Positions 15,727 through 61,312 of a stretch of 64,000 nt of DNA are shown here, one piece after another (within the stretch, counting starts at the first letter, position 1; every line of letters begins with the position of its first letter). The notes under the pieces were generated by a model, which saw only the letters and a list, made by a program, of their open reading frames with translations, had not been told where the DNA came from and made no database searches. Source of the DNA: a virus; IMG/VR virus record IMGVR_UViG_3300020202_000066, positions 25,960 to 89,959 of that record; one strand, written 5' to 3'. Made by a program: the position numbers and the translations under genes.

Positions 15727-16191
15727 CTAGGGCTCGGGCGCGATCTCACTCCGGGCAGGTTCGCGCTCCGCCCCGGTCTCGGTCGAGCCGTCGGGGAACA
15801 CCACGATGCAGGGAACGCCGCTTTTCCGGGCGAAATCGATCGTGTACCACGTACCGCCGCGAGCCTGGTGCGTGGACTCGCGCGGGCAGCCGATGATGAG
15901 GTCGACACTCCGCACGATCGCCCGATTCCGAGCGAAGTGAGTGGCTGGAGGGGCGACCTCATCGTTGAAGGAGAAGCAACCCTGCCATGGGTCGCCGTCG
16001 GGACCGGGCATGGAGTGGATCCGCGGGCGCGGCTGCATCTTGTCCGCGATGGCGGCTACCTCGACGTCGACGCCGCTGCACTGCCCGTGGACGAACAGTG
16101 CCGGGCGGTGCTCCTGAAGGAGGTCGAGCACGCGCTCGCGCTGCGCAGGCGTCATCCCGTAGCGGGTTCCGGTGATTCCGATTCGGGTCAT
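15727..16191 (-). CDS. SLOG-superfamily nucleotide-binding protein
   Basis: IGITGTR, HG.C.GVD, ARNRAIV, GGTWYTI. Confidence 0.75.
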   Translation of the reverse strand: MTRIGITGTRYGMTPAQRERVLDLLQEHRPALFVHGQCSGVDVEVAAIADKMQPRPRIHSMPGPDGDPWQGCFSFNDEVAPPATHFARNRAIVRSVDLIIGCPRESTHQARGGTWYTIDFARKSGVPCIVVFPDGSTETGAEREPARSEIAPEP

Positions 16192-16489
16192 CGCTGCTAC
16201 CTCGCGATCTTGGTTTCGAGAGATCACGATAGCATGTCGTTCAGGTGGCGGTCGCTGGCCTTGGACGGCCGACGCGCTTGCACGTCACCTTGAACTTCCG
16301 GAACTCCTGGATGCTCAGCAGCTCTGGCGCGGCCGCGGAGAGGTACACGATCAGCACGTCTCCGGCGCCGACACCCACCGAGACCAGCCCACGAGTGCCG
16401 GACTTGTCCAGGCTGGCGTAGAGTTCACGTGCGGCGGTGGCGGCCGTCATAGCTCGAAGCGTACCAGCTCTGGCGGCAAGCGAACGCGA

Positions 16490-16571
16490 TGGGGCCGTGC
16501 CGAATCGAACGGCCAAGCGCGGCGGCATCTGCTCTACAGGCAGACGGTGGATCCCACTCCCCAGCAGCCCC
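16490..16571 (-). tRNA. tRNA-Tyr(GTA)
   Basis: tctgc-ctGTAga-gcaga; long variable arm. Confidence 0.8.
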
Positions 16572-16582
16572 GGGAACCGAAG

Positions 16583-16657
16583 TACCGCCAGCGGGATTCG
16601 AACCCGCACTGTCACGACTCTCGATCGTGTGCCTCTGCCAGGTTGGGCTACGGCGGC
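16583..16657 (-). tRNA. tRNA-Leu(GAG), short variable loop, C33
   Basis: cacga-tcGAGag-tcgtg. Confidence 0.75.
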
Positions 16658-16664
16658 AAGAAAG

Positions 16665-16748
16665 TACCCGGGGTGGGAGTCGAACCCACAAATGGACTCG
16701 CGTCCGCTGGGTCTGAGCCAGCTGGCTATCCCGTTCGCCTACCCGGGC
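16665..16748 (-). tRNA. tRNA-Leu(CAG)
   Basis: gctgg-ctCAGac-ccagc. Confidence 0.85.
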
Positions 16749-16764
16749 AAGATGAACCGCACCA

Positions 16765-16837
16765 TGCCGACCCGCGGGATCGCACCGCGTTCTCCCGCTC
16801 TTCAGGCGGGCGTGAGGACTACCTTCACCAGATCGGC
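16765..16837 (-). tRNA. tRNA-Phe(GAA)
   Basis: cccgc-ctGAAga-gcggg; TGC T-loop. Confidence 0.8.
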
Positions 16838-16848
16838 GAGAGATCGCG

Positions 16849-16922
16849 TGCCCGCCCCGGGATTCGAACCCGGAACCTTCCGCTTTTGAGACGGATGCCT
16901 CTACCGGTTGGACCAGGCGGGC
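16849..16922 (-). tRNA. tRNA-Leu(CAA), short variable loop
   Basis: tccgt-ctCAAaa-gcgga. Confidence 0.85.
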
Positions 16923-16927
16923 GAGAG

Positions 16928-16998
16928 CAGGCCCTGACGGATTCGAACCGCCACCCGACGGGTTGGAGCCGTCGATGCTGCCGTTACACCAAGGACCT
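16928..16998 (-). tRNA. tRNA-Trp(CCA)
   Basis: gacgg-ctCCAac-ccgtc. Confidence 0.9.
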
Positions 16999-17014
16999 GA
17001 GTGGGGAGTGCAGC

Positions 17015-17090
17015 TGGCTCCGGGAGCAGGGATCGAACCTGCGGCGGACCGGTTAACAGCCGGCTGCTCTGCCAACTGAGCTATCCCGGA
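17015..17090 (-). tRNA. tRNA-Asn(GTT)
   Basis: Canonical cloverleaf with encoded CCA. Confidence 0.92.
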
Positions 17091-17096
17091 GCGAGC

Positions 17097-17168
17097 TGGT
17101 TGCGGGCCCGGGTGTCGATCCCGGCATTCCAGGCTTATGAGGCCCGGCTGATCGCCGAATCGCCCGCA
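17097..17168 (-). tRNA. tRNA-Met(CAT), initiator-like, reduced D-arm
   Basis: ccgggc-ctCATaa-gcctgg; ends cccgcaacca. Confidence 0.75.
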
Positions 17169-17187
17169 ACGAGTTAGGGCTGGGCCG

Positions 17188-17364
17188 TCAGGCCCCGGGA
17201 TTGAGAAGGCGCAGAAGGCACCAGGCCCATGCGGGCCCGGTAAAGAGGGGGAGCCGCCACAAGTGCGGCCGTGCAGCGGGATAACGCCGAGGGACGGACG
17301 TGGTGGTCGGGAGCGCAGCACCGACCGCGGGCGCTGCCGGGCGGATCGAATGCTGTCCAGTCAT
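17188..17364 (-). promoter_or_regulatory. Putative leader ORF (58 aa) for the Met/Asn/Trp/Leu/Phe/Tyr tRNA sub-cluster
   Basis: GAGGAG RBS; 3' half contains TAT, TTG, TGGx3, CTC/CTT, TTT, CTG, AAT. Confidence 0.65.
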
Positions 17365-17435
17365 CGGTGGCTCCTCGGGGCACGTCAGGCCCTCGGGGTC
17401 GACGTAGGATCCGACGGCGGCGGTGGGTGCAATAA

Positions 17436-17506
17436 AGGCCCCAGAGAGAATCGAACTCTCGCCACCGGGTTACAAAGCCGGCGCTCGACCTTCGAGCTAT
17501 GAGGCC
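17436..17506 (-). tRNA. tRNA-Thr(TGT), imperfect stems
   Basis: ttTGTaa loop; T-arm gagag-ttcgatt-ctctc. Confidence 0.7.
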
Positions 17507-17510
17507 GAAG

Positions 17511-17582
17511 AGCCCTGACGGCGGATCGAACGCCGGTCTGCTGCTTACGAAACAGCCATCCTACCAACTGGACGATCAGGGC
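17511..17582 (-). tRNA. tRNA-Thr(CGT)
   Basis: gctgt-ttCGTaa-gcagc. Confidence 0.88.
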
Positions 17583-17585
17583 TGA

Positions 17586-17657
17586 AGCTCTCGCCGGGGG
17601 TCGAACCCGGGTTTCGGTCTTACCAAGACCGCGTGCTACCAGCTGCACCACGGGAGC
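17586..17657 (-). tRNA. tRNA-Thr(GGT)
   Basis: cggtc-ttGGTaa-gaccg. Confidence 0.88.
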
Positions 17658-17661
17658 GGAG

Positions 17662-17733
17662 TGCGGGTCGAGCGAGTCGAACGCTCTCATCCAGTTTGGA
17701 AGACTGGCATGCAACCACCAACATCTGGCCCGC
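17662..17733 (-). tRNA. tRNA-Gly(TCC)
   Basis: ccagt-ctTCCaa-actgg. Confidence 0.85.
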
Positions 17734-17743
17734 ATGAAACTGA

Positions 17744-17816
17744 AGTGCCCGGCGGGGCTCGAACCCGCGACCTCCTCGTTGGCAACGAGGCGTTCCGCCA
17801 ACCGAACTCCGAGCAC
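17744..17816 (-). tRNA. tRNA-Gly(GCC)
   Basis: cctcg-ttGCCaa-cgagg. Confidence 0.85.
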
Positions 17817-17820
17817 AGGA

Positions 17821-17893
17821 TGTGGCGAGAGGGAGTCGAACCCTCGTGACCGGATTCACAGCCCGGCGCCTGTACCGCTCGGCCATCGCCACC
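17821..17893 (-). tRNA. tRNA-His(GTG)
   Basis: ccggg-ctGTGaa-tccgg; G-1 encoded. Confidence 0.88.
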
Positions 17894-17911
17894 ACGATCA
17901 GCACTCGAACC

Positions 17912-17988
17912 TGGCGAACATGATGGGACTCGCACCCACTTTCTCCGGCGTGACGGGCCGGCGTCTCGACTGCTTCGACCTCATGTCC
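17912..17988 (-). tRNA. tRNA-Asp(GTC), C33
   Basis: ccggc-ccGTCac-gccgg; encoded CCA. Confidence 0.8.
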
Positions 17989-17992
17989 GTAG

Positions 17993-18066
17993 TTCGCCCG
18001 GAGGGACTCGAACCCCCGAAATGGCTGGGTGTAGGCCAGCTGCCTTTGCCGCTTGGCGACGGGCGA
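17993..18066 (-). tRNA. tRNA-Val(TAC), C33
   Basis: gctgg-ccTACac-ccagc. Confidence 0.82.
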
Positions 18067-18071
18067 ATGGA

Positions 18072-18142
18072 TGGAGCTCCAGGGAATCGAACCCTGATCT
18101 GCCGGGTGCAAGCCGACCGTCCTCCCGTTGAACGAGAGCCCC
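18072..18142 (-). tRNA. tRNA-Ala(TGC)
   Basis: GGGGC 5' end, G3:U70, ctTGCac loop. Confidence 0.88.
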
Positions 18143-18143
18143 A

Positions 18144-18183
18144 GAAAGAGAAACCCCCGGGCCAGGTGAGTGGTCCGGGGGCC
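18144..18183 (-). terminator. Intrinsic terminator (attenuator) immediately 5' of tRNA-Ala
   Basis: cccccggacc-loop-ggcccggggg then tttctctttct. Confidence 0.85.
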
Positions 18184-18206
18184 TTGAGCGCGCTCTTCAG
18201 TTCGCG

Positions 18207-18284
18207 CTACAGGGCGGACCACCCGCCGGCATCGACGCCGGCCGCGTGTGCGGTCGTCCCTGTGTGCACAGTGAAGAGCAGCAT
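18207..18284 (-). promoter_or_regulatory. Leader peptide MLLFTVHTGTTAHAAGVDAGGWSAL
   Basis: gatAGGAGacgaccATG; rich in T/V/H/G/A/D codons; gggtggtccg can pair with terminator arm cggaccactc. Confidence 0.8.
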
Positions 18285-18323
18285 GGTCGTCTCCTATCAC
18301 GGTCGTGGCTATCGCGGTGCAAG

Positions 18324-18395
18324 TCCTCGCGGAGAGATTCGAACTCCCAGCCGTCTGGTTCGAAGCCAGCCGCTCTTCCGCTGAGCTACGCGAGG
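18324..18395 (-). tRNA. tRNA-Arg(TCG)
   Basis: ctgg-ctTCGaa-ccag. Confidence 0.85.
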
Positions 18396-18399
18396 ATGA

Positions 18400-18472
18400 T
18401 GTACCCGGCAAGGCTCGAACTTGCGGCCGCCCTGGTAGGAACAGGGTGCTCCTCCGACTGAGCTACGGATGC
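18400..18472 (-). tRNA. tRNA-Arg(CCT)
   Basis: ccctg-ttCCTac-caggg. Confidence 0.85.
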
Positions 18473-18491
18473 AGGAGCCACACACGGGAAC

Positions 18492-18569
18492 TGGTCTGCG
18501 CGGAGGGACTCGAACCCCCGGTCTCCTGCTCCCAAGGCAGGCGCTTTCGCCAGGCTAAGCTACGCGCAG
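18492..18569 (-). tRNA. tRNA-Pro(TGG)
   Basis: cctgc-ctTGGga-gcagg; encoded CCA. Confidence 0.9.
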
Positions 18570-18572
18570 AGA

Positions 18573-18643
18573 TGCACCCACGTGGAATCGAACCACGGGC
18601 TCGGTCTTCGGAGGACCGCATCCTTCCTCTGGACGATGGGTGC
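18573..18643 (-). tRNA. tRNA-Arg(CCG)
   Basis: cggtc-ctCCGaa-gaccg. Confidence 0.88.
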
Positions 18644-18647
18644 TGCT

Positions 18648-18718
18648 TGGTGCCTCTGTCGGGAGTCGAACCCGATGGGCAGCCTTCGCAGGGCTGCCTC
18701 CAATCCCCTGGCAGAAGC
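18648..18718 (-). tRNA. tRNA-Arg(GCG), reduced D-arm
   Basis: cagcc-ctGCGaa-ggctg; encoded CCA. Confidence 0.72.
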
Positions 18719-18725
18719 ACGGAAG

Positions 18726-18797
18726 TAGGCCGTCGTGGTGCTGCCCCACGCTCCTCCGACTTATAAGGTCGGCGCTCTGCTGATGAGCTAACGGCCC
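18726..18797 (-). tRNA. tRNA-Ile(TAT)
   Basis: ccgac-ctTATaa-gtcgg; atypical T-loop ggcagca. Confidence 0.8.
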
Positions 18798-18818
18798 AGA
18801 TGGCCGGGAAGCGTGGAG

Positions 18819-18905
18819 CTATATACGCCGTCGGGGAGACGGCACCGGGGGTGGGCAGAATGGTCGCCTCGGGGCGAAGCTGGTGAGTGCGATGTGGGCG
18901 ACCAT
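18819..18905 (-). promoter_or_regulatory. Putative leader peptide MVAHIALTSFAPRRPFCPPPVPSPRRRI
   Basis: Contains AGG, CGA, CCA/CCG and ends CGA CGG CGT ATA TAG, matching the six downstream tRNAs. Confidence 0.7.
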
Positions 18906-18946
18906 GGTCCAGCGTAGCGCGCACGCGCGGTGGCTGGTGCAGATGA

Positions 18947-19033
18947 CGGAGAGCCAGAGACTCGAACTCTGACGCGGTGAACCGCCCGCCGGGTAGCAAC
19001 CGGGGCCCGATACCAGTTACGGGATAGCTCTCC
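18947..19033 (-). tRNA. tRNA-Ser(GCT)
   Basis: GGAGAG 5' end, ttGCTac loop, long variable arm. Confidence 0.88.
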
Positions 19034-19041
19034 AGGAACAG

Positions 19042-19122
19042 AGGAGGGCGGAGGTGTCGATCCCCGAGCCCGAAGGCCCCACCGTTTTCAAGACGGCTTG
19101 CCGCGCCGGCGGCGCGCCCTCC
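19042..19122 (-). tRNA. tRNA-Ser(TGA)
   Basis: gccgt-ctTGAaa-acggt, long variable arm. Confidence 0.8.
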
Positions 19123-19136
19123 AGGAACAACACCAG

Positions 19137-19206
19137 AACGCTGGCCGGGAATCGAACCCGGGCCGGTACCTTTGCAGGGCACCTCCGCGCCACGCGAATC
19201 CAGCGC
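19137..19206 (-). tRNA. tRNA-Cys(GCA)
   Basis: gtgcc-ctGCAaa-ggtac; U73. Confidence 0.8.
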
Positions 19207-19246
19207 AAAGAGAAAGCCCCCGGCGGTCCTGTGACTGCCGGGGGCT
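19207..19246 (-). terminator. Intrinsic terminator (attenuator) immediately 5' of tRNA-Cys
   Basis: agcccccggcagtc-loop-gaccgccgggggct then ttctcttt. Confidence 0.85.
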
Positions 19247-19264
19247 CTCGATCCTGCGTCGTCG

Positions 19265-19333
19265 TCAGGGCGTCGAGACTCCCGGCCAGCCGGCGCCGCG
19301 GGAACTCGACGAACAGGTGACGATGCGGATCAT
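19265..19333 (-). promoter_or_regulatory. Leader peptide MIRIVTCSSSSRGAGWPGVSTP
   Basis: gatAGGAGcagaccATG; TGT TCG TCG AGT TCC control codons; antiterminator complementarity. Confidence 0.8.
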
Positions 19334-19409
19334 GGTCTGCTCCTATCCGCGTCGGGACGCGGTGGGTGCACGCTCGGGCGATCGAAGGAGGTTCACGGGG
19401 GGGAAGAGG

Positions 19410-19712
19410 CTAGACGCCGACGGAGACGACCTTTCCCAGGATCGCGGTCCGCTTGACCCAACCGTTGATGCGGCCGATGTTGTTCCCGATGAGAGCTCGG
19501 TCTCCCTGCAGCTGCTTGACCAGATGCAAGAGGAATCCTCCACGCCAGCGGACGAACACCGCGTCTCCGACCGCTACGGCCATGGGATCGACCGGCGCGA
19601 TGGTCACGAGCTCGCCGCTCTCGATCCGGCCGCGCATCGACCCCCCGAGCGGACGAACCTTCGCGACTCGACCAGCAGAGATCTCCCGCAGCGCATCCGA
19701 TGCCCAGCCCAT
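19410..19712 (-). CDS. Peptidase S24/S26-like domain protein inside the tRNA array
   Basis: G.SM...I..GE.V..P..GD.V...LH.V motif. Confidence 0.65.
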   Translation of the reverse strand: MGWASDALREISAGRVAKVRPLGGSMRGRIESGELVTIAPVDPMAVAVGDAVFVRWRGGFLLHLVKQLQGDRALIGNNIGRINGWVKRTAILGKVVSVGV

Positions 19713-19801
19713 CGCCTGACTCCTCCGGCGACCTTCGTGCGGCCGCCACCGATGCCGGGCGAGTAGGTCGCGCGCTGCGATTCGGGTGCGCGGATCTCGA
19801 G

Positions 19802-19887
19802 AGGACCGGAAGGGGATCGAACCCTTCGTGCGCCTCGCGGCGCGACGGCTTAAAAGGCCGCTGCCGACACCAGTCGGCCACCGGTCC
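19802..19887 (-). tRNA. tRNA-Lys(TTT) with long variable arm
   Basis: gcggc-ctTTTaa-gccgt; variable hairpin gcgcc-gcga-ggcgc. Confidence 0.75.
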
Positions 19888-19889
19888 GA

Positions 19890-19960
19890 TACCCCCGCCA
19901 GGAATTGCACCTGGGTCTCCACGTCATCAGCGTGGCATCCTGCTGTTGAACGACGGGGAT
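19890..19960 (-). tRNA. tRNA-Ile(GAT), G37
   Basis: ccacg-ctGATga-cgtgg. Confidence 0.8.
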
Positions 19961-19965
19961 GCGGA

Positions 19966-20037
19966 TGAACCCGCCGGGATTCGCACCCGGATGCCCGGAT
20001 TAAGAGTCCGGTCCGTTGCTGTTACGGTCACGGGTCC
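19966..20037 (-). tRNA. tRNA-Lys(CTT)
   Basis: ccgga-ctCTTaa-tccgg. Confidence 0.85.
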
Positions 20038-20049
20038 AGAGGAGGGGAG

Positions 20050-20122
20050 CAGCTCCTGATCGTGTCGAGCGATCACCTTCCGGGTCAAAGCCGGACGTGC
20101 AGAGCCGCTACACCAAGCAGCC
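20050..20122 (-). tRNA. tRNA-Gln(TTG)
   Basis: tccgg-ctTTGac-ccgga. Confidence 0.75.
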
Positions 20123-20131
20123 GGGGGAGAG

Positions 20132-20202
20132 CAGCCGCCCAGGGAATCGAACCCCGACCCTCTCGGTCAGAACGAGGTGTGCTGCCACTACACCCGGCGG
20201 CT
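20132..20202 (-). tRNA. tRNA-Gln(CTG)
   Basis: ctcg-ttCTGac-cgag. Confidence 0.82.
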
Positions 20203-20397
20203 TCGGAATTGATCCAGCTGGTTGACGGTGGGGCGGTGAAGCGAGAGCAGCGCCTCACTCTTACCCGCCGAGCGCCCTCGGCAGACCCCTCCGCCGACCA
20301 GCTACGCCTGGCGTTGCTGGATGGGTTTGGCCCGTCCGGGCCCGGGAATGCCGGCACCCGCGACGGGCCGACGCTTGAGCAGGAAGGAGCGGAGGAG

Positions 20398-20470
20398 TAG
20401 CCCGCCAGGGACTCGAACCCTGCTTTCCTGGCTGAGAACCAGGTGTCCTGGCCGGATAGACGAGCGGGCC
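20398..20470 (-). tRNA. tRNA-Glu(CTC)
   Basis: cctgg-ttCTCag-ccagg. Confidence 0.9.
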
Positions 20471-20476
20471 ATGAGA

Positions 20477-20548
20477 TAGCCCGCCGGAGACTCGAACTCC
20501 GCTTCCCCGTTTGAAGGACGGGGGACTTCACCCATAGTCGAGCGGGCC
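20477..20548 (-). tRNA. tRNA-Glu(TTC), C33
   Basis: cccgt-ccTTCaa-acggg. Confidence 0.85.
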
Positions 20549-20674
20549 GCGAGGAACGCGAGAAGGGCCCCGAGGGGCCGGCGTTCGAGCGGACCGGTGA
20601 GCGAGGGTGAGGAGTGCATGCGCCGGCATAGCGCTGCCCGGCCGGCGCGGGTGCATGTCGAGGACGACTGCGAG

Positions 20675-20941
20675 CTACTGGCCCGTCGACGTCGGATGCG
20701 GAGGCGGGTTGGTTTCGAGGTGCTCGAGCAGCGCGCGTACTGCGCAATCCTTCGACTCGATCAGCTTCCTGAGCGCCACGGTGCGCTCCGCGCTGCCGGG
20801 GAGCATCTGGACGAGCTGGTGAGCTAGCACGCAGTACGGCTCGCTGGCCTTCTGCAAGAAGAACGGCAGGTGCGCGAAGCGGAAGAACTTCAGCAGGGGC
20901 TCGGGGGGCGGTGCCGCGGGGACTTCGGTCGTGTCGGTCAT
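20675..20941 (-). CDS. Small helical phage protein (possible Acb2/Tad1-like hairpin)
   Basis: FF.F.HLP..LQ..S...LP..AERTVALRKL.E.KDCAVRA; GAGGAG RBS. Confidence 0.6.
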   Translation of the reverse strand: MTDTTEVPAAPPPEPLLKFFRFAHLPFFLQKASEPYCVLAHQLVQMLPGSAERTVALRKLIESKDCAVRALLEHLETNPPPHPTSTGQ

Positions 20942-21452
20942 AGGCAGACTCTCCTCGTGGTCGGAGCCAGAATGACTTGGGCGTCGGTGTGAGCCGCTGG
21001 AAGCTCCCCGGCGTCAGGGCCCCGCGTGCGATGGAACCGGGTCTTGTCCCCACGGGCCTGTGCTTCGGCCAACCTCGACCGTCAGCAGCTCGGGCGAACC
21101 GTAGGCGCGCCGGGGCGCGGGCGCAAGCACTGTCAGCCGGGGATAGCGAGGGCCACCAGGCTGACGACCGCGACCGACTCCAGGATCGCGACGAAGTCGA
21201 ACAGCAGGATGGCTCGCTCCGTCGGCTCGAACGACCTTCCGTCGAGCCAACGGGCGATCAGGTACGTCACGGATACCTCCCTTCAGCGCGGCAGCACGAC
21301 CTCCGTCGGCGTGTGTCCGTTCACCAGGTAGTAGATCAGCCCGTGCCAGCCGTAGCAGTGAACGATCCACGCGAGGATCGGGATCCCGATGAGGATGAAG
21401 AGGATGAGCACGGCGGCTTCATCGGATGATTCGCCGCGTCGGTTGAGGCGGG

Positions 21453-21728
21453 TCACTTCGCATCGTCTCCCACACCGGTGAACTTCACCGAGCAGCGGAG
21501 GTGCTTGCCGGGCGTGCTGGCCCACCAGTCGTAGAGCCACGCGACGAGGGCGAACGGGGTCACGAGGAGGGCGCACACGCCGGCGACCAGCAGAGGTCCG
21601 CCGATCAGAAGGATGACCAAGAGCCACGGGAAGGCCAGCGGCGTGCAGCCGAGCGCAGCAACCCACCCCGGCCAGATCTGAAAGCCCCATCCGATCAGGG
21701 ACACGATCGCGAGCGCATATGGCATCAC
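21453..21728 (-). CDS. Small membrane protein
   Basis: Two to three hydrophobic segments. Confidence 0.5.
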   Translation of the reverse strand: MMPYALAIVSLIGWGFQIWPGWVAALGCTPLAFPWLLVILLIGGPLLVAGVCALLVTPFALVAWLYDWWASTPGKHLRCSVKFTGVGDDAK

Positions 21729-61227: not shown

Positions 61228-61298
61228 GCCTCCGTGGGCCAGTGGCTGGCCAGTCGGCTTCAAACCGATGCAGGCCGGTTCGATCCCGGCCGGGGGCG
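61228..61298 (+). tRNA. tRNA with UCA anticodon (opal suppressor-like)
   Basis: gcctccg/cgggggc acceptor, ggcca/tggcc D-stem, gtcgg-ctTCAaa-ccgat, gccgg-ttcgatc-ccggc; TATGCT -10-like box just upstream. Confidence 0.85.
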
Positions 61299-61312
61299 CA
61301 TAGGAGGTCCCC

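Follow-up and report, generated by a model that had tools for sequence, protein, structure and literature searches.

A 28-codon open reading frame (ORF) inside the tRNA array of a soil phage carries codons for the tRNA genes that follow it, and we tentatively propose that it is the sensor ORF of a leader module that reports tRNA supply. The window analysed is a stretch of 64,000 nt, corresponding to positions 25,960-89,959 of the 89,959-b phage genome IMGVR_UViG_3300020202_000066. The array consists of 33 tRNA genes, and the ORF, the leader modules and the tRNA genes downstream of the ORF described here lie on the minus strand. The module is the third of five and represents a variant that lacks a terminator. 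Its repetition within the array, the codon match, the absence of a terminator, the base composition and the complementarity to the first tRNA are observed directly. The ORF would in addition be translated, ribosomes would stall on it and two outputs could follow, a reading to which we give slightly less than an even chance.

The candidate leader ORF (18905..18819) comprises 28 codons plus TAG and encodes MVAHIALTSFAPRRPFCPPPVPSPRRRI. It is located in the 147-nt spacer (18798-18944) between tRNA-Ser(GCU) (18945-19034) and tRNA-Ile(UAU) (18726-18797). The first-pass annotation gave the coordinates 18798..18945, which cover the whole spacer between two tRNAs; the ORF itself is confined to 18905..18819. 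Its description of an ORF ending in CGA-CGG-CGT-ATA-stop about 20 nt before tRNA-Ile was accurate, as the stop codon ends at 18819 and tRNA-Ile(UAU) starts at 18797, leaving 21 nt between them, and the TACGCT hexamer that it placed 5 nt before the ATG was located at 18916-18911. Codons 1-14 are ATG GTC GCC CAC ATC GCA CTC ACC AGC TTC GCC CCG AGG CGA, and codons 15-28 with the stop are CCA TTC TGC CCA CCC CCG GTG CCG TCT CCC CGA CGG CGT ATA TAG. Nine of the first ten sense codons end in C, as in the phage genes, and the rare codons come later. Codons 18-20 of MVAHIALTSFAPRRPFCPPPVPSPRRRI form a PPP motif, and the final four sense codons, CGA-CGG-CGT-ATA (18822..18833), are each readable by the tRNA group behind.

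This group contains five solid tRNAs and one sub-threshold gene. ARAGORN called four of the six, tRNA-Arg(CCG), tRNA-Pro(UGG), tRNA-Arg(CCU) and tRNA-Arg(UCG), at 18323..18643. Rfam added tRNA-Ile(UAU) (18726..18797; T-loop GGCAGCA), which scored 44.1 bits against a cut-off of 29 and was not called by ARAGORN, and a tRNA-like gene with the Arg anticodon GCG (18651..18718), which scored 21.5 bits and falls under the cut-off. The acceptor stem and T arm of the latter are canonical, and its D arm is short or odd. The spacer itself matched no Rfam family at E values up to 10 and is therefore not a recognisable pseudo-tRNA or known RNA.

For each of the six downstream tRNAs the ORF contains a codon that it can read (P = 0.011, 20000 dinucleotide shuffles, as for the following three values). 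Watson-Crick codons are present for five of the six (P = 0.037 for at least five), group-readable codons number 11 of 27 against a mean of 6.4 (P = 0.020), and the terminal run of four readable codons has P = 0.005. The first-pass statement that a codon exists for each of the six tRNAs thus stands at the Watson-Crick level for five; the Arg(GCG)-like tRNA, the one below the Rfam cut-off, is served by CGT through wobble. Under a synonymous-codon null that retains the same peptide and phage codon usage, all six were served with P = 0.017. At the amino-acid level, Ile, Arg and Pro account for 14 of 27 residues against 10.1 expected (P = 0.053), an enrichment that is marginal because C-rich sequence yields Pro and Arg codons anyway. 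All statistics, those on the codons included, were defined after looking, and each single codon measure is modest. In a usage reference of 6524 codons from 10 phage genes, ATA makes up 4% of Ile codons, AGG, CGT, CGA and CGG make up 6%, 10%, 16% and 27% of Arg codons respectively, and CCA makes up 13% of Pro codons. The earlier description of the codons as rare thus holds for ATA, AGG, CGT, CGA and CCA and fails for CGG.

The position of the ORF is repeated elsewhere in the array. It is preceded by a module head, TGCAC-N20-TACGCT (18911..18941), that begins 3 nt behind tRNA-Ser(GCU). A search of both strands of the 89,959-b genome found five copies of the pattern TGCAC-N20-TA[CGT]G, all of them at the starts of array spacers, on the tRNA strand. 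Block shuffles contained 1.38 heads on average, and 1.3% of them reached five; the head followed by ATG 4-7 nt further was matched four times, where shuffles averaged 0.2. An ATG stands 5-6 nt behind four of the five heads, here as TACGCT-GGACC-ATG. The leader reading is supported because this ATG occupies the same module position as the ATGs of two sister modules that possess both a Shine-Dalgarno (SD) sequence and a terminator. The start context GACCATG is also common to this ORF and the two SD-bearing leaders, which account for three of the 14 GACCATG occurrences in the genome.

Both of these sister modules behave like attenuators in silico. The first (19207..19370) consists of the head, TAGGAG-N6-ATG, the ORF MIRIVTCSSSSRGAGWPGVSTP (19333..19265) and a terminator (19249-19207), followed by Cys, Ser and Ser tRNAs, and its leader contains a CSSSS run (P = 0.0004). 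The second (18144..18321) has the head, TAGGAG-N6-ATG, the ORF MLLFTVHTGTTAHAAGVDAGGWSAL (18284..18207) and a terminator (18183-18145), and is followed by tRNAs for Ala, Val, Asp, His, Gly (two) and Thr (three). Cognate residues make up 18 of 24 in its leader (P = 0.0034), with a run of 17 that was found in none of 5000 shuffles. The two modules share the SD arrangement TAGGAG-N6-ATG and have paralogous strong terminators. In both, an antiterminator is predicted only with a ribosome set on the cognate codons; in the first, a ribosome placed at codons 7-10 is predicted to leave the 5' arm of the terminator paired upstream. This switch is seen only when the folded transcript ends ahead of the terminator's 3' arm, and equilibrium folds of the full modules always retain the terminator. 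Ribosome stalling in these two modules would lead to read-through of the intrinsic terminator in the classical leader-peptide way.

Of the other two modules, one (17169..17431) has the head TGCAC-N20-TACGTC, GAGGAG-N6-ATG (17364) and a 58-codon ORF in whose second half Tyr, Leu, Trp, Phe and Asn abound. Cognate residues amount to 14 of 57 (P = 0.038), and the tRNAs behind it are Met, Asn, Trp, Leu, Phe, Leu, Leu and Tyr. The other (20549..20655) lacks an SD and reads TGCAC-N20-TATGCC-N5-ATG (20619), followed by a small hairpin and two tRNA-Glu genes. When six leaders were compared with six tRNA groups, the own group gave the lowest count P in every row (0.08, 0.0002, 0.10, 0.053, 0.0034 and 0.038), and no off-diagonal count P was below 0.06. 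The proposal that the leader is written for the tRNAs behind it, already made in the first-pass annotation, is supported mainly by the module repeat and this own-group enrichment, evidence which that annotation lacked.

Of the classical attenuator features, the 18905 ORF has the cognate control codons and lacks a ribosome binding site (RBS), an intrinsic terminator and alternative pairings. No GGAG, GAGG or AGGA occurs within 20 nt upstream of the ATG at 18905. Four terminator-like sites were found between 16000 and 21500, none of them in the spacer 18798-18944, and no mutually exclusive antiterminator/terminator pairing is predicted within the spacer. The spacer had been described beforehand as C-rich and as having no intrinsic terminator or strong RBS; the latter two points were correct, and the C-richness proved stronger than stated. 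A 78-nt window (18830..18907) that is C-rich and G-poor (C 0.50, G 0.21, C/G 2.44) and weakly structured ranks first in C/G among 4824 windows of the array transcript. Across the whole 64-kb window, a C/G of 2.5 is reached by 0.26% of minus-strand windows. The two terminator modules are balanced (C/G 1.12-1.15). The C-richness of the ORF follows partly from its seven Pro codons.

The predicted structure of the spacer includes two hairpins. In the first (18860..18905), AUGGUCGCC (18905-18897) pairs with GGCGACCAU (18868-18860, codons AGG-CGA-CCA), so that the start codon is predicted to be paired; this is a prediction from MFE and centroid folds. The second is a small 6-bp hairpin inside the ORF, GCCGUC-UCCCC-GACGGC (18827..18843), followed by GUAUAUAG with no U-tract. 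The fold of the whole spacer is not unusual (z -1.25; 24 of 200 shuffles fold as well).

A distinct feature of the spacer is the complementarity of its trailer to the first tRNA. The trailer (18803..18819) starts at the last base of the stop codon and complements nt 38-55 of tRNA-Ile(UAU) (18760-18743), that is, the 3' strand of the anticodon stem, the variable loop and the 5' strand of the T stem. The helix has 17 pairs with one bulge. Its duplex energy of -32.9 kcal/mol was reached by none of 2000 shuffles and by 1.2% of 4000 random genome 27-mers. In MFE folds the trailer pairing displaces the cloverleaf (-42.8 versus -30.7), and among the six tRNAs that stand first in their groups only tRNA-Ile(UAU) loses its cloverleaf. 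The trailer is thus predicted to exclude the cloverleaf by pairing with tRNA-Ile(UAU). When a ribosome was placed in the model, the helix was lost and the anticodon and T arms formed in 7 of 7 footprint edges with UAG in the A site, in 5 of 7 with AUA, in 2 of 7 with CGU and in 0 of 7 with CGG. The acceptor stem was predicted with 0 of 7 pairs while the leader was attached, even with the ribosome in place.

We suggest the following scheme. Five modules would split the 33-tRNA array into groups, each module opening with the shared head TGCAC-N20-TAnG and continuing with an ATG ORF that draws on the amino acids or codons of the tRNA group it precedes. In the 18905 module, scarcity of the matching tRNAs would cause ribosomes to wait at CGA-CGG-CGU-AUA and then at UAG, where they would cover the ORF end and the 21-nt trailer; this occupancy, and not a terminator hairpin, would be the signal. 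As one output, a vacant trailer would base-pair with the newly made tRNA-Ile(UAU) at nt 38-55 and block its cloverleaf, and a ribosome at AUA or UAG would favour maturation of the AUA-reading tRNA. Such a ribosome-gated folding switch, in which scarcity of tRNA-Ile(UAU), or of the Arg tRNAs whose codons come just before AUA, lets the ribosome cover the trailer so that tRNA-Ile(UAU) folds and matures, and a plentiful tRNA leaves the trailer free to trap it and lowers output, is an unlikely possibility. It would control tRNA-Ile only and not the Arg and Pro tRNAs. If it operates, a tRNA would feed back directly on how much of it matures, through translation of one cognate codon and with no terminator. 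As the other output, the C-rich, G-poor ORF would act as a Rho loading site that is shielded by ribosomes, as in tnaC and cruR. Its composition is compatible with a candidate Rho loading site, and Rho scored above the TIGR00767 cut-off in all three Gemmataceae genomes searched, the Gemmataceae host being assigned from one gene only.

Relatives in which conservation of the ORF could be followed were sought in several collections, and no close phage relative was found in those searched. A phage collection contributed 136 records with only tRNA-sized pieces, and in no record did these span more than 3% of the 4.2-kb array. The portal protein had no relative in IMG/VR, a 45-nt exact pattern of tRNA-Ile(UAU) gave no matches, and the best non-self relative of the terminase was 41% identical. 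The shared terminator tail motif was present in 109 IMG/VR stretches, of which 12 had any tRNA, but in no case did a tRNA follow the motif within 60 nt. For P0001, a 100-aa gene that lies within the array, there are 352 relatives; their loci were taken from IMG/VR (1), from metagenomes (80 of 146 retained) and from genomes (80 of 101 retained). These loci were of two kinds, host-like Gemmataceae loci beside tRNA-Ser/Arg and distant phage arrays (L158, L160, L169, L191, L192 and L206); by eye, the spacers of L160, L169, L192 and L206 contain no such modules. The head-plus-ATG motif occurred at six places in 272 loci (2.34 Mb), none in a tRNA-bearing locus. Three sequencing runs contain the stretch, all of them DNA and none RNA; two may derive from the source sample, and the third contributes sparse identical fragments with almost no cover of 18760-18943.

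The best surviving alternative, which we consider rather improbable, is that the module is a decayed attenuator copy from which the SD and the terminator's 3' half have disappeared, leaving a mere spacer, the Ile, Arg and Pro tRNAs being co-transcribed with the Cys and Ser tRNAs under the upstream attenuator (19333..19207). TACGCT (18916-18911) lies exactly in the slot that TAGGAG occupies in the sister modules, and the 5' arm of either terminator (GCCCCCGG) can be aligned to the trailer CTTCCCGGCC, after which the sequence of this module stops at the tRNA. The ordinary fold of the spacer also fits decay, as does the presence of Ile, Arg and Pro codons (ATC, CGC twice, CCG and CCC) in the upstream leader 19333..19265. 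However, a dead ORF would not be expected to remain open, a closed ATG ORF of at least 28 codons being present on the minus strand of the spacer in only 195 of 5000 shuffles. Nor would decay be expected to keep a readable codon for all six tRNAs, four of them in a row at the end, with ATA as the last codon adjoining its cognate tRNA. The layout TAYGCY-N5-ATG recurs in the SD-less module at 20655, which is also C-rich (C/G 2.11 at 20614-20537); this suggests a second working type of module and not decay.

A different account of the missing SD builds on the leaderless start raised in the first-pass annotation: TGCAC...TACGCT would be a promoter, and the transcript would start at the A of the ATG, with 70S initiation. 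TACGCT conforms to TANNNT, 5 nt upstream of the ATG, TATGCC-N5-ATG stands in the SD-less module at 20655, and the gene behind the array (ATG 16450) has no SD and carries TACGCT 7 nt upstream. In an SD census of unambiguous long ORFs, 18 of 30 had an SD-like tetramer, a rough guide as spurious ORFs are included. For the Planctomycetes species analysed in PMC5397173, the accessible part of that paper describes low SD use, with non-SD initiation common and signs of leaderless or S1-type initiation. Nevertheless, the same slot in two sister modules is filled by a perfect SD at ideal spacing, and their transcripts must therefore start upstream of it. With 20 nt separating TGCAC from TA, the spacing exceeds that of a usual -35/-10 pair, and host tRNA upstream regions carry a different motif (GAACC-N16/17-GTC[TC]). 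TACGCT in the SD slot may equally be a decayed SD, and we regard leaderless initiation here as unlikely on balance.

It is unlikely, too, that the spacer works as RNA only. According to this explanation, promoter or processing signals (RNase E, III or P) that separate or time the tRNA groups would reside in the head, in the hairpin and the AU-rich patch beside it, and in the trailer pairing, and the ORF would be an untranslated by-product. In three cases the tRNA in front of a head ends 1-4 nt before it, the small hairpin is followed by GUAUAUAG, which alone in the spacer is AU-rich, the helix between trailer and tRNA forms without a ribosome, and there is no SD. Yet the codon match would be left unexplained, as would the ATG at 5-6 nt behind four of five heads and the perfect SDs and attenuator geometry of two of these ATGs; a sigma-70-like promoter scan of 16000-21500 found no sites. 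Finally, an accidental open frame in a GC-rich, C-rich spacer, with its Pro and Arg codons arising from composition, agrees with the marginal amino-acid enrichment, the selection of tests after looking and the three plus-strand ORFs of 28-34 aa that overlap the same spacer, where short ORFs are common, but is very improbable given the ATG placement in a five-fold module, the agreement of each of the six leaders with its own tRNA group, and the terminal run with six-tRNA coverage.

The sensor ORF that we favour would give the tRNA array of this phage a means of responding to need. Phage tRNA arrays have been discussed as counter-measures to host tRNA-cleaving defences (PMC10264068, PMC11464382 and PMC11555353, in the parts available). 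The literature search, with subscription journals outside its coverage, returned no paper on leader-peptide control of tRNA genes, and the available parts of the papers found do not address when phages make array tRNAs. If the proposal is correct, modules that each read the supply of their own tRNA set through a test ORF would form a supply-on-demand circuit, and the 18905 copy would show the same sensor wired to Rho or to folding of the first tRNA instead of to an intrinsic terminator.

The closest comparison is with the two full attenuator modules of the same array. All three have the same head, an ATG 31-32 nt from TGCAC, the GACCATG context, a short ORF for the tRNAs behind and a hairpin starting at the start codon. 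In contrast to the 18905 module, the other two possess an SD, a predicted antiterminator and, directly in front of the first tRNA, a strong terminator made of a hairpin and a U-tract, and they are far less C-rich. Multivalent leader-peptide attenuators are known for amino-acid operons, as in the thr, ilvGMEDA, his and trp leaders. By analogy with these, the codons of a short upstream ORF would name the limiting aminoacyl-tRNAs and stalling would be the input. However, the regulated genes here are tRNAs and not enzymes, there is no intrinsic terminator or 2:3/3:4 alternative, and the control codons stand at the ORF end beside the stop codon.

The hisL attenuator is also included in PMC12360218, the accessible text of which describes upstream ORF-dependent Rho attenuation by tnaC, speFL, cruR, mgtL and corL. 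In tnaC, speFL and cruR, a ribosome at the last or stop codon covers a C-rich Rho site that lies next to the ORF or within it, and for mgtL the translation of Pro codons matters, as stated in the title of a reference therein. The 18905 ORF resembles these systems in having no intrinsic terminator, a C-rich and G-poor sequence, putatively slow codons at its end and a PPP motif. In those ORFs the ribosome stalls in response to a small molecule or metal sensed in the exit tunnel, or to Mg2+, whereas the cause proposed here is the supply of the downstream tRNAs; moreover, the downstream genes here are structured tRNAs, and Rho dependence is a candidate property.

The possible folding switch has its nearest parallels in RNase P processing. 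In an engineered, ligand-driven RNase P riboswitch, the structure of the pre-tRNA 5' leader controls processing (PMC7897497), and pairing of the leader with the 3'-RCCA inhibits RNase P (PMC9433436), as reported in the parts of these papers available. Similarly, pairing with the 5' leader of a pre-tRNA might decide RNase P action here. Unlike in those systems, a ribosome on the upstream ORF would serve as effector, and the tRNA body would be the pairing partner of the leader. The 147 nt of the spacer plus one tRNA thus offer a compact test bed for translation-coupled control of a non-coding RNA.

The virus record is 89,959 b long, with a completeness rating of 72%, and the window (bases 25960-89959; G+C about 65%) encodes a Mu-type portal, a tape-measure-like protein and an SNF2 helicase. 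A tRNA array occupies the minus strand from 20548 to 16490 (ARAGORN and Rfam). ARAGORN identified 29 of its tRNA genes, and Rfam added tRNA-Lys(CUU) (19966-20037), tRNA-Asp(GUC) (17915-17988), tRNA-Ile(UAU) (18726-18797; missed by ARAGORN) and an Arg(GCG)-like gene (18651-18718) scoring 21.5 bits, below the cut-off of 29, all on the minus strand. With this sub-threshold gene counted, the array comprises 33 tRNAs and covers all 20 amino acids. The T-loop of tRNA-Ile(UAU), GGCAGCA, is unusual, and the D arm of the Arg(GCG)-like gene is shortened; Arg(gcg) tRNAs were also found in two distant arrays (L169 and L206). A class II tRNA body with a long variable arm and a Lys UUU anticodon lies at 19801-19887 (minus strand); ARAGORN calls it Lys(ttt), 87 nt, and its best Rfam score is tRNA-Sec-like (51.3 bits). 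Distant from the array, on the opposite strand (61228-61299, plus), ARAGORN reports a tRNA-SeC (tca).

The leader ORF, a 28-codon mini-gene (minus strand, 18905..18819), lies in the spacer between tRNA-Ser(GCU) and tRNA-Ile(UAU) (18798-18944). As the first-pass annotation had stated, it terminates in CGA-CGG-CGT-ATA-TAG, stops about 20 nt (exactly 21) before tRNA-Ile(UAU), and contains a codon for each of the six downstream tRNAs at isoacceptor level. These codons are ATA, CGT (by wobble), CGG, CCA/CCG, AGG and CGA. Behind tRNA-Ile(UAU) follow Arg(GCG)-like, Arg(CCG), Pro(UGG), Arg(CCU) and Arg(UCG). In dinucleotide shuffles of the ORF body, p was 0.011 for serving all six tRNAs, 0.037 for at least five Watson-Crick codons, 0.020 for 11/27 readable codons and 0.005 for the terminal run of four readable codons. 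Synonymous draws with the peptide fixed and phage codon usage served all six tRNAs in 1.7% of cases, and 3.9% of shuffled spacers held a closed ATG ORF of this length. The enrichment of Ile, Arg and Pro is marginal (14/27 vs 10.1 expected; p 0.053). The leader ORF taken alone is thus suggestive, not compelling, and these tests were chosen post hoc, once the sequence had been inspected. It is worth taking seriously mainly because of its membership in a series.

Every long array spacer opens, on the minus strand, with TGCAC followed 20 nt on by TA[C/G/T]G. This module head, TGCAC-N20-TA[C/G/T]G, has five matches genome-wide on both strands, all at array spacer heads (20655, 19370, 18941, 18321 and 17431, minus strand), vs a mean of 1.38 in block shuffles. 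An ATG stands 5-6 nt past the hexamer in four of the five heads (0.2 expected), including that of the leader ORF, which shares its GACCATG start context with ATG 19333 and ATG 18284. When the residues cognate to each of six tRNA groups were counted in each of six leader frames, the lowest p fell on the frame's own group in 6/6 rows (0.08, 0.0002, 0.10, 0.053, 0.0034 and 0.038), and no off-diagonal p was below 0.06. A CSSSS run had a p of 0.0004, and the 17-residue cognate run before the Ala/Val/Asp/His/Gly/Thr tRNAs was matched in 0/5000 shuffles. Given the head repeat, the shared ATG placement and the own-group enrichment in each row, the leader ORF is one member of a module series. The favoured reading is that of a sensor ORF in a terminator-less member of a five-module family; that it is translated and regulatory we propose tentatively, at somewhat under an even chance.

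Another module ORF, of 58 codons (17188-17364, minus strand), precedes the Met/Asn/Trp/Leu/Phe/Tyr tRNAs; it contains an in-frame hairpin, GCCGCA-CUUG-UGGCGGC, followed by UCCCCCUCUUUA, and a further hairpin, GGGCC/GGCCC, has the stop codon of this ORF in its loop. From ATG 20619 of the Glu module, a 105-codon frame (20619..20302, minus strand) spans both tRNA-Glu genes and ends ...KPIQQRQA-stop just ahead of the Gln, Gln, Lys, Ile and Lys tRNAs. Of its last 30 codons, 7 encode Gln, Lys or Ile (p 0.0002), and 5/5 of these tRNAs have a Watson-Crick codon among them (p 0.0015); the spacer proper ahead of these tRNAs has no canonical start.

Two sister modules, with ORFs at 19333..19265 and 18284..18207 (minus strand), bear terminators. 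Both carry a perfect SD in GATAGGAG-N2-GACCATG (2 matches vs 0.08 expected), and their ORFs from ATG 19333 and 18284 are MIRIVTCSSSSRGAGWPGVSTP and MLLFTVHTGTTAHAAGVDAGGWSAL. Their strong terminators are paralogous, with U-tracts abutting the first tRNA, and share a tail motif whose only two sites in the window are in these modules. Folding was predicted on transcripts truncated ahead of the terminator 3' arm with a ribosome placed. With the ribosome on Cys/Ser or Thr/His/Ala codons, the terminator 5' arm is predicted to pair with the leader end as an antiterminator; on naked RNA, or with the ribosome at the stop codon, it is predicted to remain free. As modelled, this is classical attenuator geometry.

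Unlike these modules, the leader-ORF module has no terminator and no SD, and TACGCT occupies the slot of TAGGAG. The annotated absence of a strong RBS and of a U-tract terminator thus held (no SD upstream; no hairpin with U-tract in the spacer), as did the placing of TACGCT 5 nt before the ATG. That the module is a decayed copy is a rather unlikely reading; the Glu module (20655) is of the same sub-type, with TATGCC-N5-ATG, no SD and a small hairpin only. The C-rich sequence reported earlier was borne out, since 18907-18830 (C 0.50, G 0.21, C/G 2.44) ranks first of 4824 windows on the array transcript. The two modules without an SD are rich in C and poor in G (C/G 2.11 in the Glu module) whereas both terminator modules are balanced (1.12-1.15), so C-richness separates the two module types. 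RNA-only or chance readings take the remaining probability. The spacer alone has no unusual structure (z -1.25; 24/200 shuffles fold equally well), and its predicted hairpins (minus strand) pair the ORF start region with codons 13-16 and form 6 bp within codons 21-27, followed by GUAUAUAG. The idea of a leaderless transcript beginning at the leader-ORF ATG fits the TACGCT-N5-ATG layout, but the same slot is the SD in the terminator modules, and 20 nt from TGCAC to TA is over-long for the usual -35/-10 pair.

For the sensor-ORF reading, the missing SD is a weakness and not a refutation. SD-like tetramers precede 18/30 unambiguous long phage ORFs (a rough census, spurious ORFs included), and the gene that immediately follows the array (ATG 16450) is without an SD. 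Planctomycetes (one species analysed) are grouped with phyla in which few genes have an SD, and such phyla show signs of leaderless or S1-type initiation (PMC5397173, in excerpt).

The host is likely Gemmataceae-like, judging from a single gene, because the closest relatives of P0001 (100 aa; 19712..19410, minus strand, inside the array) are Gemmataceae (Planctomycetota) genes directly behind host tRNA-Ser/tRNA-Arg genes; the top relative (74% identity) is on a Frigoriglobus MAG contig. P0001 has no Pfam match. Its homologues (loci L158, L160, L169, L191, L192, L206, L193, L194 and L198) recur within other metagenomic phage tRNA arrays, which hold 4 to 26 tRNAs, and immediately behind tRNA-Ser(GGA) and tRNA-Arg(CCU/UCU) of Gemmataceae genomes. 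P0001 resembles a passenger that recurs at tRNA loci. Host-like tRNA genes (L193, L194, L198, L118 and L123) have GAACC-N16/17-GTC[T/C] about 10 nt ahead of the tRNA, with the site about 40 nt before tRNA-Ser(GGA); this motif, perhaps a type of promoter, is unlike the phage module head. No close relative of the phage was found in the collections searched; terminase relatives reach 41% identity at best, and the portal protein has no relative in IMG/VR. DNA pattern searches for related arrays found nothing, and the module pattern was not seen by eye in L160, L169, L192 and L206, four of the six distant phage arrays with a P0001 homologue (the others being L158 and L191). The sequencing runs containing the stretch are DNA only, with no informative variation at the leader-ORF module.

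Two outputs of the sensor ORF are possible, either a trap for the folding of tRNA-Ile(UAU), gated by the ribosome, or Rho shielding. In the first, the trailer, between stop codon and tRNA, would trap tRNA-Ile(UAU) in a misfold that a ribosome at AUA/UAG would relieve. In thermodynamic predictions throughout, the 17 nt from the last stop-codon base (18819-18803) pair with tRNA nt 38-55, i.e. the anticodon-stem 3' strand, variable loop, T-stem 5' strand and three T-loop bases. The predicted duplex (-32.9 kcal/mol) was reached by 0/2000 mononucleotide shuffles and equalled by 1.2% of 4000 random phage-genome 27-mers; the predicted fold of trailer plus tRNA is -42.8 kcal/mol vs -30.7 for the cloverleaf. 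Among the six group-opening tRNAs, only tRNA-Ile(UAU) loses its cloverleaf in the MFE; tRNA-Met has a similar energy gain from its own hairpin, with an unremarkable duplex (17% of random 27-mers). The misfold is predicted once tRNA nt 1-56 are transcribed, and its relief at 7/7 assumed footprint edges with UAG in the ribosomal A site, 5/7 with AUA, 2/7 with CGU and 0/7 with CGG. The acceptor stem was never predicted with the leader attached, ribosome folds included. Since AUA is read by tRNA-Ile(UAU) itself, the gate would close a feedback loop, controlling tRNA-Ile alone.

In the second, a ribosome waiting at the 3' end of the leader ORF would shield a candidate Rho site, as suggested by composition and analogy. 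By composition, no other stretch of the array resembles a Rho site as closely as the leader ORF does; slow codons are stacked against its stop codon, and a PPP motif lies further upstream. Rho exceeds the family cut-off in 3/3 Gemmataceae genomes checked, for a host judged from one gene. Gemmata sp. IIL30, Gemmata algarum and Zavarzinella formosa each have three Rho homologues, of which two pass the TIGR00767 cut-off and one falls narrowly short. No report of leader-peptide control of tRNA genes was found in the portions of the literature searched. In tnaC, speFL and cruR, a Rho site within or next to the ORF is covered by a ribosome that waits on the last codon or the stop codon, and in the mgtL and corL leaders Rho access is decided by uORF translation (PMC12360218, in excerpt). 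The leader-ORF module would be a new variant of leader-peptide sensing.
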